64,000 nt of DNA from Cyanobacteriota bacterium (GCA_033764955.1 JANRIL010000041.1:58408-122407); one strand, 5' to 3'. Numbered from the stretch's first letter, positions 1 through 15,878 are shown. Numbers and translations: made by a program. Notes: generated from the sequence alone by a model not told the origin.

Positions 1-384
1 AAGATCTAAGTGGCCAATTACTAAATCACGGGTAATTAGTCTTAGTTCTGTAATTATTTTAGATCGAAGCTGAGAGAAATCGTCATTAGGATTATCCTCT
101 ATAATATCCCTCAATCGCGTATTAACAGCACTATAATAATCACCACTATGCCCACCATTGTGAATGGCACCTGGCACACGCTTCGCTACCTCACTATTAG
201 CAGGCAACATCACCCCATTCTCGGCACTGTTGATGCCAATGCCATAATCTCTCAGAATATCCTGGGCTAACTTCGCTGCTGTTGCCGTTGCAGCCACAAT
301 ATGATGAGGTCTTGTGCCACAGGGCATGTCCCCATAAACAGCTTCTAATGCTCTTGCCAGTTGGTCAGAGTTGCTAGTAGAAGA
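1..384 (-). pseudogene. Orphan AHH-family nuclease tip (cassette 4); nuclease domain only, no start at its 5' boundary, runs off the window edge
   Basis: Not in the ORF track. Manual translation after TGA at 385-387: SSTSNSDQLARALEAVYGDMPCGTRPHHIVAA...NSAENGVMLP...HNGGHSGDYYSAVN...DLVIGHLDL. About 91% nt identical (hand count 23/262 mismatches) to 2806-3067. Confidence 0.85.
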
Positions 385-494
385 TCATGATTCTGTTTGT
401 ATTGTCTCTATCAGAATGCTAAAGATTATGTTGAGATTGCGTTGGCTCTATGAAATGTGAGATTTACCTTTCTCTGATAGGAATTTTGGAGTGT

Positions 495-1046
495 CTAAGA
501 GGAGGATGACCAGACTTTATCAAACTTAAACCCTGTTAAATGATGTTGGCGAACCAACTCGACAAATTGATCGCTGACATAAATACTATATCTAAATTGT
601 TTATGAGGAATCCTAAAAATTTGCAAATCACCTATTTTACTTGGAAAGAATGAATGCTTTAGAATCTCTATAGGAGATCCAGAGGGAAGTGTTCTAAATT
701 CGGAGTTTTGTTCATCTAAGCAATCGCAAGATGAGGTAAAGTGATAAGCAAAATATGCGCCGAAACATGGTTGCAGTGGTAAAAGCTCTCCACTCTCTAA
801 TAAAAAATTACCTAAAACCATAATTGCCAAATCACTAAAAACTGGAATAGTTCCATAAATAGTAGCTCGATCACCAGGTATCCTCCCTCTTTGTCTTTTT
901 GATATTGAGAGATGTACTGGATTCCAGATATCTCGAATTGGATTATCCTTATGCCATCCCAGCTCCATTAATTTCTTTGACTGATCAGGATCTAGGCAAT
1001 GAAACATTATCCCATTATTATCGATTACAAGCAGATATATATTCAT
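495..1046 (-). CDS. Imm11/DUF1629-like immunity protein (partner of cassette 3)
   Basis: MNIY start; PVFS..GELLP and IFR..YVSDQFV..LTGFKF..W motifs shared with the two paralogs; begins just after the toxin stop. Confidence 0.8.
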   Translation of the reverse strand: MNIYLLVIDNNGIMFHCLDPDQSKKLMELGWHKDNPIRDIWNPVHLSISKRQRGRIPGDRATIYGTIPVFSDLAIMVLGNFLLESGELLPLQPCFGAYFAYHFTSSCDCLDEQNSEFRTLPSGSPIEILKHSFFPSKIGDLQIFRIPHKQFRYSIYVSDQFVELVRQHHLTGFKFDKVWSSSS

Positions 1047-1050
1047 GGAT

Positions 1051-2001
1051 CTAAAGCCATAGACTTGAATCATGGTTCAGAAGTCTAGTTCTTAATTCAT
1101 TGAGGATTTGAACTATTTCATTGACTGGTTCATTGTTATCTTTAGCAGACTTTAATAATGTATTTACCGTATTGATATACTTGCTTGTATGAATAGTTTG
1201 ATGATACGGCCCAGGAGCATAGGACTCTCTTCCCCCAGGTAAGAAAACTCCATTCACTGCATCATCAATGCTAATTTGATAGCTATCTAATACATCTCGT
1301 GCTTGCTGAGCACTAGGATCATTTTGCTCTACAATATGATGCGCCTGAGTATCACATGGTTGAAAGGTTGGGGGAGGCGCTTCAGGTAAATGGCTCCCTT
1401 GTTGCATATTTTGGGCTAGGCGATTAGTGGGTGATATCCGACATTCCACCTCAAATTCTATAAATTGATTGGCTTGACCGTCAGTTCCAAGAAGACTACT
1501 CCAAACAGTAGCTGAGGATGGAGAAATACTGTTCAGCAGTTGAAAACCCATAGTGGCAGGCGGATAAGTCCCCTCAGAAGCTACCTCAATTTTTATCTTA
1601 CTGAAAACTGCTCTGAGTTGAAGAGGCTGGTTTGCTACGGTTCCCTGATCCCAAAGCAATTGGCTTGATTGGGTAGTTTCGACTTGTGGGTATGGAGGGT
1701 TGATAGTGACTCCATTTTGCTTATTCAGGAGAGGTGTAACAGTGATGCTAACTCTGTCTCCATCATCAGGATAATGTCCATTATCCCACAACTCATTTTC
1801 AAGCAAATATTCATTGGAACTAATGACAATACTGGAGGGAGGAATCTTATCGTCAACTTTGGGATCCGGTGAAGGACTAGGAGAGGGAGAAGGACAAGCG
1901 GAGGGAGTGGGATCTGGGGGAGGATCTGGAGTCGGAGGAGGATCCCGATCTGGAGTCGGAGTTGGACTGCGTGAAGGAGATGGACTGAAATAAGCAGCTC
2001 G
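1051..2001 (-). pseudogene. Orphan toxin cassette 3: Pro-rich linker + pre-toxin domain + AHH nuclease; no start codon at the linker
   Basis: The frame of ORF 1051..1806 stays open to 2001 (RAAYFSPSPS...PSACPSPSPSPSPDPKVDDKIP...). Motifs QAHHIV, NGVFLP, HQTIH. Confidence 0.85.
1840..1902. repeat. 63-bp direct repeat (linker homology arm), identical to 5049-5111
   Basis: aggaatcttatcgtcaactttgggatccggtgaaggactaggagagggagaaggacaagcgga at both positions. Confidence 0.95.
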
Positions 2002-2640
2002 CTACTCATCACTTGACCAAACTAACTTGGGAGCAAACCCTAACAACCCATGCTCTTGGATCCGCTCAACGAATACGTCTGACACATAAAGCAGACCAGC
2101 TTTTGAGTGATGTAAGTCCATTCTGAAAACAACTTGGTTTTTAACTAAATCAGGATGAAACTTGTAATTTATGATATGACCAAGGCTACGATCAGCTAAT
2201 AATCCCTTAGTCCTTAAATAACCATAAGAACCAGGAGGGAGTAATTTAGCTTCTTCAGCAGTATAGTAATAATCAAACTCAGAGTTTTCTGTATCCAGAG
2301 CATCCACAAAGTTAGTTACGTTGTAGCAGTAATAGGTTCCATATTCGGTAATGATAGGTAATAATTCACCGCTTGGAATAAGTAGGTCTTCTAATACGTT
2401 CACTGCGTTCTGACTGAAGGCAATACGCCCCCCACAACCTGGAAAATCTGAAAGAGGGTACTTTTTAGGTTCTTCATCAGTTACCCAATAAGCTTTACAA
2501 GGAATCCATTCATGCTTAATTGGTTTTCTATACAACCATTTTCTCTCTCTGTAGTTAGCAGTAATTCTTCTAGAATCACTTGATTCAAGATTAAGCAAGT
2601 TGTAAGGATTAGCATCCCAATCAAGAATATAGATATTCAT
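2002..2640 (-). CDS. Imm11/DUF1629-like immunity protein (partner of cassette 2)
   Basis: MNIY start; SDFPG, GELLP, VDALD, YVSDVFVERI..LLGF, WSSDE end. Confidence 0.82.
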   Translation of the reverse strand: MNIYILDWDANPYNLLNLESSDSRRITANYRERKWLYRKPIKHEWIPCKAYWVTDEEPKKYPLSDFPGCGGRIAFSQNAVNVLEDLLIPSGELLPIITEYGTYYCYNVTNFVDALDTENSEFDYYYTAEEAKLLPPGSYGYLRTKGLLADRSLGHIINYKFHPDLVKNQVVFRMDLHHSKAGLLYVSDVFVERIQEHGLLGFAPKLVWSSDE

Positions 2641-2675
2641 TTGCTCCTCTTCTGTATCTTTGTTAAAAGTCTGGC

Positions 2676-3638
2676 TTACAATTGCAAATTCCCAAGAACT
2701 AAGTCGTTAGCAATTTTTCTTAGTTCATCAATTATTTTCCCTCTAATTTGCTGATAATTGTTACTGTTAGTAACTGCTTGATCTCTAGTTATTCTCAGTC
2801 GGTCGTTAACAGCACTATAATAAGCACCACTATGTCCACCATTATGAATAGCACCTGGCACACGCTTCGCTACCTCACTATTGGCAGGTAACATCACCCC
2901 ATTCTCAGCACTGTTGATGCCAATGCCATAATCTCTCAGAATATCTTGAGCTTCCTGCGCTGCTCCTGCCGTTGCCGCCACAATATAATGGGGTCTTGTG
3001 CCACAGGGCATGTCCCCATAAACAGCTTCTAATGCCCTTGCCAGTTGGTCGGAGTTACTGCTGGAAGTATAAGATAATCTCCTGCATTCCAAATTAAATT
3101 GATACTTTTGACCCAGCTCTAGCATTGGTAGATTGGCACTCAATGGCTTTAACTGACTATAGCTACTGATGCTTCCTCCTGTTGGGTCATGATTATTAAA
3201 CAAAAGGTTGAGGGTCGCTGCATCAGGATAACTCCCCAAATCAATCGCCTCAATAGTAACAGAATTGTTAAATCCTGGTAAATCAACTGTCTGTAAGTTC
3301 CCTAATGTGATTGTTAGCTCGACAGGAGAGAGAGCAGGTTGAGCTGCAATATCAGAGGTAGAAGGGTTAAAAGAACCCGCAGATTCGATAGTTAGCTTGA
3401 TGCGATCTTGATCCTGGTGATGTCCATTGTCTTCAAAGTTTATACCCAGAGAATAAGTATCATTCTTCAAGACCACTCTTACAGCAGACTGAAAGGCAAA
3501 CGGAGTCGGATCCTTTAGGTCAGGACTAGGGCTAGGAGAGGGCGAAGGACAAGCGGAGGGACTGGGATCCGGGGGAGGATCTGGAGTGGGACTTGGGCTG
3601 AGAGGCGGCGGTGGTGGCGAACTGAATAAGCAGCTCAC
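2676..3638 (-). CDS. Orphan toxin cassette 2: Pro linker + pre-toxin domain + AHH-type nuclease with PHY instead of xHH
   Basis: GTG overlaps the immunity TGA; PSACPSPSPSPSPD linker; NSAENGVMLP and HNGGH motifs. Confidence 0.8.
   Translation of the reverse strand: MSCLFSSPPPPPLSPSPTPDPPPDPSPSACPSPSPSPSPDLKDPTPFAFQSAVRVVLKNDTYSLGINFEDNGHHQDQDRIKLTIESAGSFNPSTSDIAAQPALSPVELTITLGNLQTVDLPGFNNSVTIEAIDLGSYPDAATLNLLFNNHDPTGGSISSYSQLKPLSANLPMLELGQKYQFNLECRRLSYTSSSNSDQLARALEAVYGDMPCGTRPHYIVAATAGAAQEAQDILRDYGIGINSAENGVMLPANSEVAKRVPGAIHNGGHSGAYYSAVNDRLRITRDQAVTNSNNYQQIRGKIIDELRKIANDLVLGNLQL
3532..3587. repeat. Linker homology arm copy in cassette 2
   Basis: ctaggagagggcgaaggacaagcggagggactgggatccgggggaggatctggagt; 3 mismatches to 1877-1932. 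Confidence 0.9.
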
Positions 3639-4189
3639 TCCTCATCACTTGACCAAATCTTGCGAAACAGAAAGCCTGTTAATCGAGCCCGTTCAACAAT
3701 ATTTACAAACTGATCTGTCACACAGGGATAGCTATCATGAGGAATTTGCACAGTCTTAAAAATGGTAAGTTGGGAAACCTTTTGTGGAATAAAATAATAT
3801 TTTTTGATATAATAAACTAAGCCATTTTGATTCTTTGATAGGGAAGACTTTTCTTCATCAAGAGCATCTACAATCGTTGTGGTATTGTAGAGATAGAATG
3901 TTCCATTATCACTTTCTAACGGTAATAACTCTCCATTCATCTCTAGTACTTCTCCTAAAGCTTCTACTGCTTTCTCGGTAAATGCAGGCATCCCACTCAA
4001 TCCTGGAAAATCACTAATTAGTCGAGGGGGTTTGTCAAGATCACTAACGAGCTGGACTGGTACTGGCTCCCAAATTCCTAATACAGGATTTCCAGAGAGA
4101 AATTTACTCACTTTATTGAGTTTCTCCCCACTGCCCACAACTAAACTTCGATATCTACTAACATCGGGTACTAAATGATAAATATTCAT
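3635..4189 (-). CDS. Imm11/DUF1629-like immunity protein of the full-length toxin
   Basis: GAGG SD before MNIY at 4189; SDFPG, GELLP, VDALD, VTDQFV..LTGFLF..WSSDEE. Confidence 0.85.
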   Translation of the reverse strand: MNIYHLVPDVSRYRSLVVGSGEKLNKVSKFLSGNPVLGIWEPVPVQLVSDLDKPPRLISDFPGLSGMPAFTEKAVEALGEVLEMNGELLPLESDNGTFYLYNTTTIVDALDEEKSSLSKNQNGLVYYIKKYYFIPQKVSQLTIFKTVQIPHDSYPCVTDQFVNIVERARLTGFLFRKIWSSDEE

Positions 4190-4199
4190 GCTCTGAACC

Positions 4200-6044
4200 T
4201 CAATGGGGAAATGTTTTTGCAATCAGTTCTTGTCGAATGTTATTCAATACATCTTGAATGTTAAATGTTGTTGCTCCTGGTTGATTTGCTGCTGCTGCTA
4301 ATCTTCTCCTAACTTCCTGAACATAAGTGTTCGTATGAAGCCCTGGAGATTGATTATGAGGTGTGCCAGGAACGGGAATGCTATTATTCTGTGGTAATAC
4401 TACTCCGTTTGAGGCACTGTTGATATGAATATCAAACTGAGTCAGAATATCTTTAGATGCTTGTACCGCTTCACTCATTTCCGGACTACCACTAAAGTTT
4501 CCTTTCGGCACAATATGATGAGCTGCCGTACCACATGGCATCCTTTTCCCATAATATCCAAATGGCTCTGAAAATACATTCCCAGATAAATTCATGTGGA
4601 GTCCTTGCTCCATATTTCTGGCTAGCTTAGCGGCATCATCACTGCCACCAGCCGGAGCACGACGACACTCTACTTCAAAGGTAATGCTTTGGTTAGCACT
4701 CAACAACACACTCCCTTCAAATGTGGTGAGGCTAACCGATTGACTAGATCCAGGGAGAGGAGTTGGATCTTGTTCTACCTTTTCTATCTTAAATTCTAGA
4801 GTGGCTGGCGGATATTCTCCTTCCGATAACCCCTCAATGGTGACTTTGTTCTCAACTGACTGGAGATCAAATACACTTGATTTGTCTTGAGCCGATAAAT
4901 TAATAGAATCTTGCTCACCTGTAGCAGAACTAAGAGTATATCCAGTAGGTTCAACGGTAATAATAACGGAATCACCATCAGAAGTATGATGACCATTATC
5001 GTTAAGCTTCATCGTAAATTGTTGATAGTCATGCACCACAACCTTGACAGGAATCTTATCGTCAACTTTGGGATCCGGTGAAGGACTAGGAGAGGGAGAA
5101 GGACAAGCGGATGGACTGGGATCCGGAGTTGGGGGAGGATCCGGAGTAGGAGTGGGTTGAGGAGTGGGAGTAGGACTCGGTGAAGGGAAAGGATCTGGTT
5201 GGTTATAAATCTCTTCTAGAGTAGCGGCAAAAGCAGCTAGCTGCTCAGGAGCCATATAGTCCTCGACCAAGGCTAACAACTGAGCCGTGGAATAGCCAAC
5301 TAAGCCAAAGACTTCAATAGTTGTGAGAATACAGCCATTGGGATTGGCAAGAGCCAAGCATTGGTTAATAGCAGTTGCAAACGCTTGTGGGGAAACAGAA
5401 CTAGTCTTGCTTTCGCTCTCAGAGAGGTGAAGGCTACTCTGGTCAGGAGGGCAAGGATCCGGAGTGGGAGTTGGGCTGGGAGGTGGCGGTGGTGGCGGTG
5501 GCGGTGGCGGTGGCGGTGGCGGCGGTGGTGGCGGAGTGGGATCTGGAGAGGGGAAAGGAGAAGGACTGGGGGTTGGGCTAGGAGAAGGGGAAGGACTGGG
5601 GGAAGGAATCGGGGAGGGACAAGTATCACGAGTCACTTCAAAGAAGCTTTGAGTTCCATCGGTTCTGCCGTAGCAGGCTTTAGTGCATTGGGAAGTACCC
5701 GTTAAAACATTTGTCCAGCAAAAATCATAGTAATAGCGAGTTGGCTGATCAAAAATCTGCTCTAGGGAATGGAAACGAGCATTATTCCAGCAGCGCGGCC
5801 CATGATAGAGCCAGGTTCCGTTATGGGGATAGTAGTAGTAGCACTGCGCACAGACCTGGCACATGGGAGTGCGAGTGGGGGATCCTGTTGGGGAAGGGCT
5901 GAGAGAGGCTGCTGGGGATGCTGCCACATTGACCGGATCATTGGGATCAACAGCAGGAGCAATCACCGTAGGAGCATGACTAACCGCACAGGCGGCTAAG
6001 CCAAAGCTGAGCAATCCTCCCCAGAGCCAAATCGAGCGAGCCAT
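4200..6044 (-). CDS. Lipoprotein polymorphic toxin with C-terminal AHH (HNH/EndoVII-fold) nuclease
   Basis: Signal peptide with lipobox LAAC (C19); Cys-rich domain; Pro linkers; AAHHIV at 4515-4523, NGVVLP, H..GLHT; immunity gene directly downstream. Confidence 0.85.
   Translation of the reverse strand: MARSIWLWGGLLSFGLAACAVSHAPTVIAPAVDPNDPVNVAASPAASLSPSPTGSPTRTPMCQVCAQCYYYYPHNGTWLYHGPRCWNNARFHSLEQIFDQPTRYYYDFCWTNVLTGTSQCTKACYGRTDGTQSFFEVTRDTCPSPIPSPSPSPSPSPTPSPSPFPSPDPTPPPPPPPPPPPPPPPPPPPSPTPTPDPCPPDQSSLHLSESESKTSSVSPQAFATAINQCLALANPNGCILTTIEVFGLVGYSTAQLLALVEDYMAPEQLAAFAATLEEIYNQPDPFPSPSPTPTPQPTPTPDPPPTPDPSPSACPSPSPSPSPDPKVDDKIPVKVVVHDYQQFTMKLNDNGHHTSDGDSVIITVEPTGYTLSSATGEQDSINLSAQDKSSVFDLQSVENKVTIEGLSEGEYPPATLEFKIEKVEQDPTPLPGSSQSVSLTTFEGSVLLSANQSITFEVECRRAPAGGSDDAAKLARNMEQGLHMNLSGNVFSEPFGYYGKRMPCGTAAHHIVPKGNFSGSPEMSEAVQASKDILTQFDIHINSASNGVVLPQNNSIPVPGTPHNQSPGLHTNTYVQEVRRRLAAAANQPGATTFNIQDVLNNIRQELIAKTFPH
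5049..5111. repeat. Linker homology arm inside the full-length toxin
   Basis: Identical to 1840-1902. Confidence 0.95.
5478..5534 (-). repeat. (CCACCG)n-type tandem repeat encoding 19 consecutive prolines
   Basis: Direct read of the ggtggc/ggcggt tract. Confidence 0.9.
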
Positions 6045-12239: not shown

Positions 12240-12715
12240 GTGCTTTTGAATTGTGAACTTGAGACGAGACTTTTCCGTGCCAATAAAGAAGCAATAAATG
12301 GCTAGGGAAAATACAGAGAAACTCGATCGGGAGGGATCGATTACTGGTATTCATACGTCCGCTGTTGTTGAGTAGTGCATCAACCCGTTGTCCATAAATC
12401 CCGTGCAATTACGCTCCTCAATTGAGGGTTTCTCCCCGATACTAAGAGCGATACATATTACTCTAAAAAAGGTTATTATGGGTATCGCATCCCAGGCTCA
12501 GTTGCTCGCACGGATGTTAGGGTCAGCATTTAATCTGGGAGATCTCTCCGAATTACGGCTCCATTTTCAGGATGGTCAAGCAGTGGAGTGGGTTGCTTCC
12601 GGCAAGCAGAAGCTTTCCTCCGGTCAGTCTGAGCCATCCCCAGCCAATCGAGCCAGGTAGGATTCCTCTTGGGCTGCATGACTGTCTTACCGCATCTCAC
12701 CCACTAGAGCTGGTT

Positions 12716-14497
12716 ATGAATCTCGAGAGCCGATTAGGGATCCCAGAGCCGTTGCGGAAAATGGAGCGACCCAAAACGGAGATCAGCCTACGAGAACTAG
12801 ACGACAACCAGTTACGGGGCAGCTTAGGTAGCCTGGTTTTGAACAAAGCCACCTGGAGTCACTTCAGTCTTAATGAAACCAGCCGCTTGTTGCGACCTCT
12901 GCAAATCTCACCGGAATTAACCGGAACCACCATTCTCACCCAAGGAGCCACGGCAGAAATCACCTACAAATTCCCTTTGAATGGGGGACGGATCGGCACG
13001 ATGACGGGCATGATTTCCATCGAAGACTTTCGTGGAGATCGGCTAGGGGATATTTATCAGCAACTCAATATTCGACAAATTATTGATGGCTTTACCCAAA
13101 CCATTGTCATTCAAATCATTGATCATCTCAGACCCATTTTTGCTAGAGAAAATGATGCTTTGCTTTGGCAGGAATCTGTCATCTTTCTTCCCAAAGATAT
13201 CAGACAACATGAGTTCCTGATTCGGGGGCTGCGACCGGAGGGGATCCCCAGAAGTTTTGCCCCCCATTTAGAAAGTATTTATCGCTTGATCATCTCAGTT
13301 TGTCCGATCTTTCCTAATGTTGCGTTTCAGCTTTGTTTGCGTACCTATTTAGAATACAACGCTATCCCCAATCAAGAATTACTAGCTCTCCTACTCAGTA
13401 AATATTTTTATACCGTTTTTCGTTTGCAAGGATTGCACCAAGAGTCCTCCATTTATGTGGGTTCGGCTCTGCTGGGATCCCCGACTTCCCAGTCCCGTTT
13501 ACGCACACTTTCGGGTTTGATGACCATCGATAATGATAGCGAGGCTACCCTTCTAGATGGAGGAGGAATTGGTCGAGGGGGGGGCGGCAGCTATTTTTCG
13601 GGAGAGCAGGAATTTAGCGAACAGGGAGAACTGATCACTGCTGAAGAATTTGCCCGTCTTCGTCAAGATGCCCAACAGGCGCGTAGTCAGGCGGAAGAAG
13701 CAACCCAGTTAGTGGCACGTTACCAAGAAGAAGAAAAGCAGGAACTTCTCAAGCGGTTAAGCGATCCCGATCGCTTTTTAGCGTTTAGTCTCAACCAATT
13801 TTTTGATGATATTTTTACCAACATGCCCCAAGGAATCCGCTCCGAGTCGGGCGTAGTTTGGATTCCAAAAACATCTTTGCTTGATGAACTCAAACGGGAG
13901 GAATTAACCCAGTATCTGCGACGGGTGACCAGCGAAAATTATCTTTTTCGCGTCACTTCTGCTGAGGCTCGCATTATTGGCTATTGGCGAACCCTGGCAG
14001 AACCTTTTTACAACCAGTGGGTTCTCAATCAATATAAACAACTTCAGGACTATAATATCAAGCTGGAAAGTGTCAGTATCAAGATGATTTCACGGGAACG
14101 TTTTGTGGAGGAGGTGGAGCTACGCTTTGCCTCACGACACATGGAGATCGTTAATCAGAACCTCAGTAAAATTGCCTCTGTTGTTGTAGAAAAATTGGCT
14201 CAAAGGGTGGCGATCAATACTTCTCAGCAAAGCTTTCAGGCGATGCGAGCCAAACTCAACAATGTGCTGGATATGGAAATTTCCCGCAGTGATGTGAAAG
14301 AAGCGAAAAAGCTGATTGATATCTTTGAAGAAGTCTTTATGGGCAAAAAGGAACAGCACCGATCTCCTTATCCGGTGGGAACCATTTTGGAGGTCTATCG
14401 AGATTTACGTGGTCGCTACAAAGATGGCCGCACTTTAGTGGGCATGGAAATTTTATCGCAAATTTATCAGGAATATATGGCCAAAAGTCAGAGCTAG
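12716..14497 (+). CDS. Hypothetical protein with central Gly-rich hinge and coiled coil (start may be 12572)
   Basis: Long stop-free ORF with globular-like composition; no family recognised. Confidence 0.75.
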   Translation: MNLESRLGIPEPLRKMERPKTEISLRELDDNQLRGSLGSLVLNKATWSHFSLNETSRLLRPLQISPELTGTTILTQGATAEITYKFPLNGGRIGTMTGMISIEDFRGDRLGDIYQQLNIRQIIDGFTQTIVIQIIDHLRPIFARENDALLWQESVIFLPKDIRQHEFLIRGLRPEGIPRSFAPHLESIYRLIISVCPIFPNVAFQLCLRTYLEYNAIPNQELLALLLSKYFYTVFRLQGLHQESSIYVGSALLGSPTSQSRLRTLSGLMTIDNDSEATLLDGGGIGRGGGGSYFSGEQEFSEQGELITAEEFARLRQDAQQARSQAEEATQLVARYQEEEKQELLKRLSDPDRFLAFSLNQFFDDIFTNMPQGIRSESGVVWIPKTSLLDELKREELTQYLRRVTSENYLFRVTSAEARIIGYWRTLAEPFYNQWVLNQYKQLQDYNIKLESVSIKMISRERFVEEVELRFASRHMEIVNQNLSKIASVVVEKLAQRVAINTSQQSFQAMRAKLNNVLDMEISRSDVKEAKKLIDIFEEVFMGKKEQHRSPYPVGTILEVYRDLRGRYKDGRTLVGMEILSQIYQEYMAKSQS

Positions 14498-14741
14498 CAA
14501 CCCCTTCCATTCATCTTTATATTCCCTCATCCACCACTCATTCCTACCGCCGAGCCGCGTTAGGGAACAGGATCGATCCCACTTGGGTTCTGGTCGAGCC
14601 ACCAGGTAGCCAAACTATGGGAGCAGAAGAACACAAAACTTTAGATTAAAATCTTAAGGTCAGGTAAAGGTTTATACGCAATCGTTGTCATTCCCCTAAA
14701 AGACTAAGTTAACCTCAATAGATACTTTGGGAGATAGGGGA

Positions 14742-15878
14742 ATGGGTAATTGGCGTTGGTGGCAACTACTGGGTTGGGTAGGGTTGGGAATGTTGGCGAG
14801 CTTGGGGGGGGTATGGTCGGATCCCCTTGCTGCTCAGGGCTACGCTCCCCCTTTTTTGCTCAGCCTGCGGCAGCAACCGACGGATTTTTCCCAATACTCC
14901 CTGGGATCCCCGTTTCAGACCCAGCGAGTTGTCATTCCTCCCCAGTTTGATAAGGCCAGAGGATTTTCAGAAGGGTTGGCGGCGGTCAACATCGACGGGC
15001 AATGGGGCTTTATCAATCGGGTGGGCGATAGAGTCATCCCCGCCACCTATGATTTCGTCTTGGACTTTTCGCAGGGGAAGGCGGCGGTTAGACGAGGAGA
15101 TCTGTGGGGCTACATCAACCCCCAAGGCCAAGAAGTGATCCCCTTGCGTTATCAACAGGCGGGGCGATTCTCGGAAGGGTTAGCGGCTATTCGCATCAAT
15201 AATCGAGCGGGTTATATCAACCTGCAAGGGCAAATGGTGATTGCCCCCCGTTTCGGAGTTGCCCAAGAATTTTCGCAGGGGTTGGGGTTGGTGCGTATCA
15301 AAAGAAAATGGGGCTATGTAGATAAAACGGGATTGCTAGCGATTCAACCTCAATTTGATGGAGGATCTGGTTTTTCGGAAGGGTTAGCGGTGATTCACCA
15401 AAATGGCAAATCGGGTTATATCAATCGTGGTGGGGAGGTGGTGATTCCGGCTATTTATGACGAGGCGCTCAGCTTTACGGAAGGTCTAGGGCTGGTCAAA
15501 ATTGGACAAAAATGGGGATTTGTCGATCCTACTGGTCAATTGGCCATTCAACCCCAATTTGATACAGCCTTTCGCTTTTCGGAGGGGCTGGCTTCCGTTG
15601 AAATGGCAGGCAAATCCTTCTATATTGATCCGCAAGGGGAGGTCGTTTTGAAATCACCCCTGGATTTAGGCTTTGGAGTCGCTCTGAATTTCTCCGAAAA
15701 CTGGGGAGCCATCGGCATTGGTGACAAATGGGGATATATCGATAAGCTGGGTAATTTGGTGATTCCTCCTCAATTTGATCGGGTGTCTTTTTTCTCCGAA
15801 GGGATGGCGGCTGTCAATATCAATAACAAATGGGGATATGTCAGCAAGCGACGGTTTATCCCCGAATTTGACCGTTAA
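14742..15878 (+). CDS. Secreted WG/KWG-repeat protein
   Basis: Signal peptide; about 8-9 repeats of FSEGLA.V...KWG(F/Y)ID..G. Confidence 0.92.
   Translation: MGNWRWWQLLGWVGLGMLASLGGVWSDPLAAQGYAPPFLLSLRQQPTDFSQYSLGSPFQTQRVVIPPQFDKARGFSEGLAAVNIDGQWGFINRVGDRVIPATYDFVLDFSQGKAAVRRGDLWGYINPQGQEVIPLRYQQAGRFSEGLAAIRINNRAGYINLQGQMVIAPRFGVAQEFSQGLGLVRIKRKWGYVDKTGLLAIQPQFDGGSGFSEGLAVIHQNGKSGYINRGGEVVIPAIYDEALSFTEGLGLVKIGQKWGFVDPTGQLAIQPQFDTAFRFSEGLASVEMAGKSFYIDPQGEVVLKSPLDLGFGVALNFSENWGAIGIGDKWGYIDKLGNLVIPPQFDRVSFFSEGMAAVNINNKWGYVSKRRFIPEFDR

Follow-up and report, generated by a model that had tools for sequence, protein, structure and literature searches.

We asked whether a run of nuclease genes at one end of a 64,000-nucleotide (nt) window from a Cyanobacteriota bacterium (GCA_033764955.1 JANRIL010000041.1:58408-122407) arms its host against neighbouring cells, and by what route the nucleases might reach them. 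The window is the whole stretch of DNA that was analysed; it corresponds to contig C4:58408-122407 of genome G000, an assembly of 48 contigs that is 89% complete, and positions below refer to the window unless a contig or locus is named. An initial annotation had described a lipoprotein ending in an AHH nuclease, followed by an Imm11-type immunity gene and a library of orphan toxin/immunity cassettes, and had taken the whole for a polymorphic toxin system. The open reading frame (ORF) list and Pfam matches placed one complete gene of 614 amino acids (aa), four AHH domains and three Imm11 genes on the minus strand of positions 1–6044 (Table 1). Together with the co-variation of toxin and immunity types and the anatomy of the array, these matches support the annotation: judged from its sequence, the locus is very probably a polymorphic toxin–immunity system.

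Toxin and immunity genes of the two arrays

The AHH family (PF14412) scored 49.0, 43.2, 56.2 and 52.2 bits in the four toxins (T1–T4), all above the Pfam cut-off of 22.3, and Imm11 (PF07791) scored 38.8, 35.0 and 36.6 bits in the three immunity genes of the window (I1–I3; cut-off 22.1). Both of the families first proposed were thus recovered by hidden Markov model search in every gene. The gap between toxin and immunity gene is 4–35 nt for each toxin, and I1 begins 10 nt past the T1 stop codon. T1 is the complete gene; it encodes, in order, a signal peptide with lipobox, a Ser/Pro region, a Cys-rich domain, a Pro-rich stalk (stalk 1), a middle domain, a second Pro-rich segment (linker 2), a pre-toxin domain and the AHH nuclease. 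These parts, the adjoining Imm11 gene and the headless cassettes all lay where the initial annotation had put them. Its count of three headless toxin cassettes stands for T2 and T3, both of which carry the pre-toxin domain, but the last of them, T4, is an AHH-only fragment. The array also runs off the window, as had been noted, though by one further Imm11 gene only (I4): it ends ~670 bases beyond the window start, where I4 is followed by pdxJ.

Across the genome there were seven AHH and nine Imm11 matches, all within this array or a second one on contig C44. Because every genomic copy falls in one of two arrays, the clustering of AHH with Imm11 is not a matter of chance. The G+C content of the islands was 0.43 (C4) and 0.40 (C44), vs. 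0.54–0.58 in the flanks.

The four toxins could be aligned from linker 2 onward, and the repeating cassette consists of a linker remnant, the pre-toxin domain, AHH and Imm11. A 145-nt stretch of linker 2 (5049–5193; repeat family D4) recurs before T3 (1840–1984; 81%) and before T2 (3495–3639; 62%), and where an immunity gene ends and the next cassette starts, the joining sequence recurs at 94% identity. As its coding DNA recurs before each orphan, we propose linker 2 as the site of recombination. The T2 and T3 frames are open from the very stop codon of the immunity gene before them, the open frame upstream of T3 encodes a linker-2 homologue, and the orphan frames contain no internal stops. 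The DNA of T4 is ~90% identical to the AHH part of T2 (2794–3067). Nine of 10 aligned tips retain the catalytic AHH, N, H, H and Y positions; the exception is T2, which reads P-H-Y (2979–3011) where all other copies, its C44 paralogue and T4 among them, read H-H.

The second array (G000:C44:104700-113300; locus L009, 6700–15300) is headless and lies in a different genomic context. Its order is Imm11, N-truncated T1, Imm11, T2, Imm11, T3, Imm11, Imm11-like, SUKH-1/TPR, Imm11 and a linker remnant, and positions 469–5498 of the window are collinear with it at 87.9% identity over 5052 nt. Since the collinearity breaks inside stalk 1, T1 on C44 is without its signal peptide and Cys-rich head. We considered whether C44 might be an assembly duplicate of C4, and rejected this on the level of identity, the differing flanks and the differing extra genes; because their flanks differ, the two are separate loci.

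Toxins and immunity proteins of the two arrays fall into three co-varying types. AHH tips are 78%–88% identical within a type and 35%–44% between types (pairwise identity), and the Imm11 proteins show the same grouping (72%–91% within, 31%–42% between). I1 is 74%–76% identical to three type-1 copies on C44, I2 is 91% identical to its C44 copy and 72% to I4, and I3 is 82% identical to its C44 copy. This sequence co-variation is as cognate pairs predict. Searches by sequence found no solved relative of the AHH tip or of the Imm11 protein.

C44 also holds immunity genes without a partner toxin, namely extra type-1 copies, a SUKH-1/TPR gene and an Imm11-like gene. The orphan Imm11-like gene (L009 12446–12979) is 50% identical to the immunity protein beside the toxin of a Thermostichus sp. 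metagenome-assembled genome, and may afford protection against a neighbour's toxin. The SUKH-1 (SMI1/KNR4) and TPR protein (L009 13099–14232) belongs to a common immunity family for other toxin types; no toxin matching it was seen.

Table 1. Positions of the toxin and immunity genes of the array and of the parts of T1 (window positions, except for I4)
Feature	Position	Strand	Evidence
T1, complete toxin gene, 614 aa	4200..6044	-	ORF; AHH E 6.9e-13, residues 503-607; lipobox pattern
T1 signal peptide and lipobox, aa 1-19, L-A-A-C, Cys19	5988..6044	-	translation; lipobox pattern
T1 Cys-rich N-terminal domain, aa 55-149, 8 Cys	5598..5882	-	translation
T1 Pro-rich stalk 1, aa 142-200, 66% Pro	5445..5621	-	composition
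T1 middle domain, ~85 residues, hydrophobic stretch, helical by eye	5190..5444	-	C44 copy 93% identical; no family match
T1 Pro linker 2, aa 286-333	5046..5189	-	direct-repeat family D4; translation
T1 pre-toxin domain, predicted beta-sandwich, type 1, ~170 residues; motifs DNG, DGD, TIE, ECRR	4539..5045	-	alignment A5; AF2
T1 AHH nuclease, type 1, aa 503-614	4203..4538	-	PF14412; AHH, N, H, H, Y kept
I1, Imm11 gene, 184-195 codons	3635-4222, probable ATG start 4189	-	PF07791 E 8.1e-10
T2, orphan cassette, 320 codons: linker remnant, pre-toxin, AHH; no signal peptide or lipobox	2676..3638	-	PF14412 E 4.5e-11
I2, Imm11 gene, 212 codons	2002..2640	-	PF07791 E 1.1e-08
T3, orphan cassette, 251-codon ORF 1051-1806, first start codon TTG 1806, frame open to 2001	1051..2001	-	PF14412 E 4.2e-15
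I3, Imm11 gene, 183-192 codons	495-1073, probable start 1046	-	PF07791 E 3.7e-09
T4, AHH-only remnant, 109 codons, stop codon just beyond window	1..327	-	PF14412 E 6.9e-14
I4, Imm11 gene, 212 aa, beyond window start	G000:C4:57741-58379		ORF and Imm11 match

The T1 carrier and its pre-toxin domain

A PROSITE-type lipobox pattern matched each of the eight full-length carriers examined, in this genome and in relatives, and none of three headless copies; in T1 the match ends at Cys19. The lipoprotein N-terminus first proposed for T1 is a recurring feature of such carriers. Genes for Lgt and LspA are present in the genome. A second LspA match (G000:C14:124077-124471) is split over two frames and is perhaps a paralogue with a frameshift.

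The Cys-rich head of T1 is single copy in the genome, and a word search with it returned 22 candidates, none of which scored. An exhaustive phmmer search against 1.84 billion representatives gave six matches, one of them plausible: a protein with a type IX secretion system (T9SS) tail (P0004), which carries a four-Cys module four times (27%–31% identical, with all four Cys aligned) and which we regard as a weak lead. The other five matches were rejected by eye as repeat-driven (Ig-like or low-complexity repeat proteins). The module makes up the first ~55 residues of the head, and in P0004, an uncharacterised protein, its four copies are in tandem. An AlphaFold2 (AF2) model of the head from a two-row alignment was unusable (pLDDT 47). 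Both T1 (5190–5444) and a 1056-aa relative (L035 4483–7653) have a transmembrane-like hydrophobic stretch and then an acidic stretch, helical by eye, before the linker to the pre-toxin domain, an odd feature in a lipoprotein.

No Pfam or NCBIfam model matched the head, middle and pre-toxin domains, and NCBIfam gave nothing above cut-off for the array proteins; matches to TonB, SslE and InlK models lay far under their cut-offs, covered the Pro linkers alone and were rejected as compositional. An alignment of 13 copies of the pre-toxin domain (A5) revealed conserved D-N-G, D-G-D, T-I-E and E-C-R-R motifs, and AF2 predicted from it a beta-sandwich of eight strands with a helix after it (pLDDT 71, pTM 0.64). 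Foldseek found no match to this model in the PDB at E ≤ 0.001, and a search independent of Foldseek (VIA wide) returned generic beta-sandwiches, many of them tied (best Z 6.1, rmsd 2.8 Å over 79 residues), including a HAP2 domain, pilus chaperones, PLAT and Calx-beta. In the ESM Atlas, T1 residues 55–145 and 329–480 had no feature matches, and the structure rows were generic (TM below 0.5), those for the pre-toxin region being Fn3-like. These generic sandwich matches point to no specific fold family for the domain, nor does the fold suggest a function.

The pre-toxin domain has a narrow distribution. Among 726 candidates from a search with the region, the C44 paralogue was the sole find. The T1 domain used alone as query was present in three of 41 relatives' genomes, and a pre-toxin profile found it in six of 30 genomes from the order (Thermostichus relatives); in a phylum-wide sample of 401 genomes, the profile matched G000 only (none of the 400 others). 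A 13-row profile searched against a collection of 5.8 billion proteins matched five, with AHH or EndoU domains. A locus search with the single protein found nothing, and one with alignment A4 found 29 loci, of which two, both already known, cover the pre-toxin domain; the remaining loci match AHH alone and come from Actinomycetota, Bacillota, Chloroflexota and others. At the sequence level, the carrier is new and very narrowly distributed, being restricted to one clade.

Relatives and known toxin systems

The relatives bearing the pre-toxin domain include Thermostichus sp. and Synechococcaceae cyanobacterium. In full-length relatives the domain stands behind a lipobox and before either an AHH or an EndoU tip, so that homologues with different C-termini, for which the initial annotation had proposed to search, do exist. 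One relative, a lipoprotein of 526 aa, has a different Cys-rich motif, two tandem beta domains and AHH, followed by Imm11. Lipoproteins of 427 and 428 aa have the same Cys motif as the 526-aa relative, a single beta domain and an EndoU RNase (PF14436); the gene downstream is unrelated and encodes 140 aa. In a lipoprotein of 1056 aa (split in one genome), a large N-terminal region leads through a hydrophobic segment and a linker to a beta domain and a weak AHH match, and two to three Imm11 genes follow. The two EndoU proteins, from two species of one genus (G013 and G005), are 90% identical over their first 283 residues vs. 51% in the tip, and their downstream immunity proteins are 40% identical. 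A conserved N-terminal part with a divergent tip and immunity gene is the classical signature of polymorphic toxins. In G003 and G010, another large lipoprotein (559 and 981 aa), which matches von Willebrand D below threshold, stands directly after the toxin/immunity genes (L035 655–2334; L036 4492–7437); it could act as an additional toxin or in an accessory role.

Measured against known systems, the locus has the general features of polymorphic toxins: a signal peptide with lipobox joined to a C-terminal AHH domain, with Imm11 close downstream; a conserved N-terminal part with a divergent tip and immunity, in the G013 and G005 proteins, the T1 head having no comparable homologue; and orphan cassettes that share linker-2 homology, three on C4 and three on C44. 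The tips agree with Tox-AHH (43–56 bits, with the residues kept except for H to Y in T2) and the antidotes with Imm11 (35–39 bits in the window). As the initial annotation had supposed, the T1 carrier has no Rhs, haemagglutinin/FHA, VgrG/PAAR, LXG or MafB domain at E ≤ 1 in Pfam. T1 contains none of the domains of contact-dependent growth inhibition (CDI) proteins (TPS domain, FHA repeats, VENN); the search for their partner TpsB, whose control was silent, is weighed below. Neither RHS repeats nor PAAR/VgrG of the Rhs and type VI secretion systems were found in T1, and the sheath protein TssC/VipB of the latter was not found in this 89%-complete genome by a search whose control worked in E. 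coli. A MafB-like DUF1020 N-terminus had no Pfam match, and the gene upstream of T1 is a PadR regulator, not MafA. CDI (CdiA-CT/CdiI) and Rhs arrays likewise have headless toxin/immunity cassettes in tandem, with a short stretch of homology to the expressed gene, and a bipartite variable part in which an entry-type domain precedes a nuclease. The present locus differs from both in having no FHA/TPS, VENN, RHS or PAAR domains and in having a lipoprotein export signal.

By architecture the closest system is the myxobacterial SitA5 (lipoprotein, AHH, Imm11), without detected sequence homology. Myxococcus xanthus DK1622 carries 14 ahh loci alongside 20 imm11 genes, and eight ahh-imm11 loci belong to the SitA5 lipoprotein family, which is delivered by TraAB outer membrane exchange (PMC12077181). 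AHH/Imm11 pairs, the lipoprotein SitA5 included, have been shown experimentally to act as toxin and immunity in Myxococcus (PMC12077181; PMC8546572), and SitA toxins are defined as lipoproteins that combine modular nuclease tips with an escort domain of ~375 aa specific to each family (PMC8546572). T1, with its type II signal and lipobox (by pattern), resembles SitA5/SitI5 in this and in its family-specific N-terminus, its modular nucleases including AHH, its downstream Imm11, its occurrence at several loci and its mobile-island context. It differs in that SitA loci are not described as tandem arrays of headless cassettes in the cited parts of those papers (PMC12077181; PMC8546572), and in that the present host is a cyanobacterium, from another phylum. 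T1 did not match PF09533 or TIGR02269 (SitA6), the escort domains of SitA1/2, 3, 4, 5 and 7 falling outside this comparison, and searches with the head and pre-toxin domains returned cyanobacterial proteins only, plus the one T9SS protein, and no myxobacterial protein.

In the cited part of Zhang et al. 2012 (PMC3482391), Tox-AHH is listed with Imm11, with a spread that includes cyanobacteria, and lineage-specific N-terminal carriers (MafB-N, the Microscilla N-domain and the lipobox-bearing APD1/APD2) are described, some of them behind a lipobox. The locus is like the general-pathway carriers described there in its clade-restricted N-terminus, variable toxins, adjacent immunity and orphan cassettes; it differs in that the variable cassette is a pre-toxin domain plus tip, and in its unmodelled head, middle and pre-toxin domains. 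A search of titles and abstracts found no paper describing a lipoprotein polymorphic toxin in cyanobacteria or Thermostichus. The idea of an undescribed system thus holds for the carrier, which is new, but not for the general concept: the combination of lipoprotein, AHH and Imm11 is already known, from Myxococcus (PMC12077181; PMC8546572), and Tox-AHH/Imm11 is listed for cyanobacteria, to go by the parts of these sources cited above (PMC3482391).

Delivery and competing explanations

On balance we favour a reading in which T1 is a lipoprotein-anchored polymorphic DNase that reaches neighbours by contact or in vesicles, Imm11 is its antidote, and the orphans are spare modules exchangeable at linker 2. 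Its role would be antagonism between closely related cyanobacteria. Sec would export T1, Lgt and LspA would lipidate it at Cys19, and it would stay anchored on a membrane, from which the two Pro-rich stalks would hold out the C-terminal module, a predicted beta-sandwich pre-toxin domain with an AHH (HNH/EndoVII-type) DNase. By contact, or through shed membrane vesicles, this module would enter neighbouring cells, where the DNase would cut DNA unless the matching Imm11 were made in the cytoplasm. The N-terminal part of CdiA-CT is an entry-type domain. Because the pre-toxin domain co-varies with the nuclease and directly precedes it, we infer, by comparison with the entry domains of CdiA-CT and the escort domains of SitA, that it may serve in cell entry or receptor binding. 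The downstream cassettes would be headless spare modules with their own immunity genes, so that immunity to sister toxins would be maintained, and recombination at the shared linker 2 could bring them under the one head that is expressed. Delivery from the surface or in vesicles, and a part in kin discrimination, both raised by the initial annotation, are possible; most of the uncertainty lies in the delivery route.

Several observations weigh against this reading. Only one of the seven AHH copies has a head, and T2 may, from its altered motif, be inactive. A constant head with variable tips is demonstrated only for relatives that have other heads; since the Cys-rich head has no homologue bearing other tips, the pattern is unsupported for T1 itself. 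Several cyanobacterial lipoproteins are thylakoid or plasma-membrane proteins, and because a search found no LolA in the genome, as it found none in the Synechococcus elongatus control, placement of T1 in the outer membrane is uncertain. Searches of the genome found neither TpsB (the ShlB-type transporter) nor MYXO-CTERM (TIGR03901), each with a silent control, and because the assembly is incomplete and in many contigs, the absence of a secretion system is unproven.

T1 might instead be a soluble bacteriocin-like toxin, which we judge to be the main rival, though the less likely reading. Its lipobox anchor would be transient, or the protein would be cleaved at a Pro linker, after which it would diffuse, use its N-terminal or pre-toxin domain to bind a receptor, and be imported like a colicin or S-type pyocin. 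Its three-part, linker-separated architecture (head, middle, pre-toxin plus nuclease) would suit such a toxin, as would the missing LolA match, which makes stable outer-membrane anchoring uncertain, and polymorphic toxins with only a signal peptide are classed as exported by a general pathway in the cited part of Zhang et al. 2012 (PMC3482391). The lipobox Cys is, however, kept in eight of eight divergent heads, which argues that lipidation matters; moreover, no lysis or release gene is visible in the array, and no colicin/pyocin translocation or receptor domain had a Pfam match in T1. The headless AHH copies (six of seven) and the changed catalytic motif of T2 would also fit a mainly defensive or decaying island, in which Imm11 genes are retained against neighbours' toxins and the toxin genes are undelivered relics, and so would the extra C44 immunity genes without a partner toxin, the Thermostichus-type and SUKH-1 genes included. 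We think this unlikely, as the 614 codons of T1 are intact and no motif residue is lost, the orphan frames are open, and orphan arrays behind an intact gene are normal in active CDI, Rhs and Maf loci, as described in the cited part of the same survey (PMC3482391). By far the least probable explanation is an exported nuclease outside conflict, serving DNA scavenging or biofilm remodelling and accompanied by an inhibitor for self-protection. Some nutritional nucleases are likewise exported and encoded beside an inhibitor gene, but such a role leaves the three co-varying types, the headless cassettes, the orphan immunity genes and the AHH-to-EndoU swaps unexplained.

Beyond the favoured reading of T1 as an anchored DNase, we suggest tentatively that Thermostichus relatives, which are early-branching thermophilic cyanobacteria, may have a SitA-like system of their own, in which lipid-anchored nucleases pass by contact or vesicles without a dedicated secretion machine and the pre-toxin domain is a new escort module, swapped with the nuclease as one cassette. 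If true, lipoprotein-borne kin discrimination would be a convergent strategy of mat-forming bacteria and not a myxobacterial speciality, and contact- or vesicle-borne delivery would carry the SitA principle to bacteria other than myxobacteria. How cyanobacteria deliver toxins to other bacteria has hardly been studied. A classic model of coexisting, closely related ecotypes is the hot-spring mat of Thermostichus-like cells, where a toxin/immunity "barcode" would offer a testable mechanism of strain exclusion. The carrier is of interest as a compact new design, in which a lipobox and stalks are combined with a previously unmodelled, predicted beta-sandwich that co-varies with the nuclease and is found with two nuclease families.

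The other flank of the array holds a PadR regulator, an RND efflux pair (HlyD-type adaptor and AcrB) and ordinary metabolic genes. The statement that no secretion genes lie nearby is thus right for protein secretion systems, but the efflux pair does adjoin the array. We rejected the RND/HlyD genes as an exporter for the array: they form an AcrB-type pump pair on the opposite strand, behind the PadR regulator. A promoter/terminator scan of the locus gave 18 vs. 13.4 ± 3.9 and 4 vs. 5.4 in shuffles, respectively, which is not above the shuffles. A query of public sequencing runs listed none with the locus, RNA runs included. About 6 kb past the array end, and separated from it by housekeeping genes, are tyrosine integrase-like and two-part transposase-like ORFs, recognised by eye (G000:C4:49700-51900; L008 3737–5893). 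Elsewhere in the window, a 641-aa ORF without a Pfam match (12572–14497) lies beside a gene for a protein with eight WG repeats (14727–15878; PF14903, E 2.8e-99).

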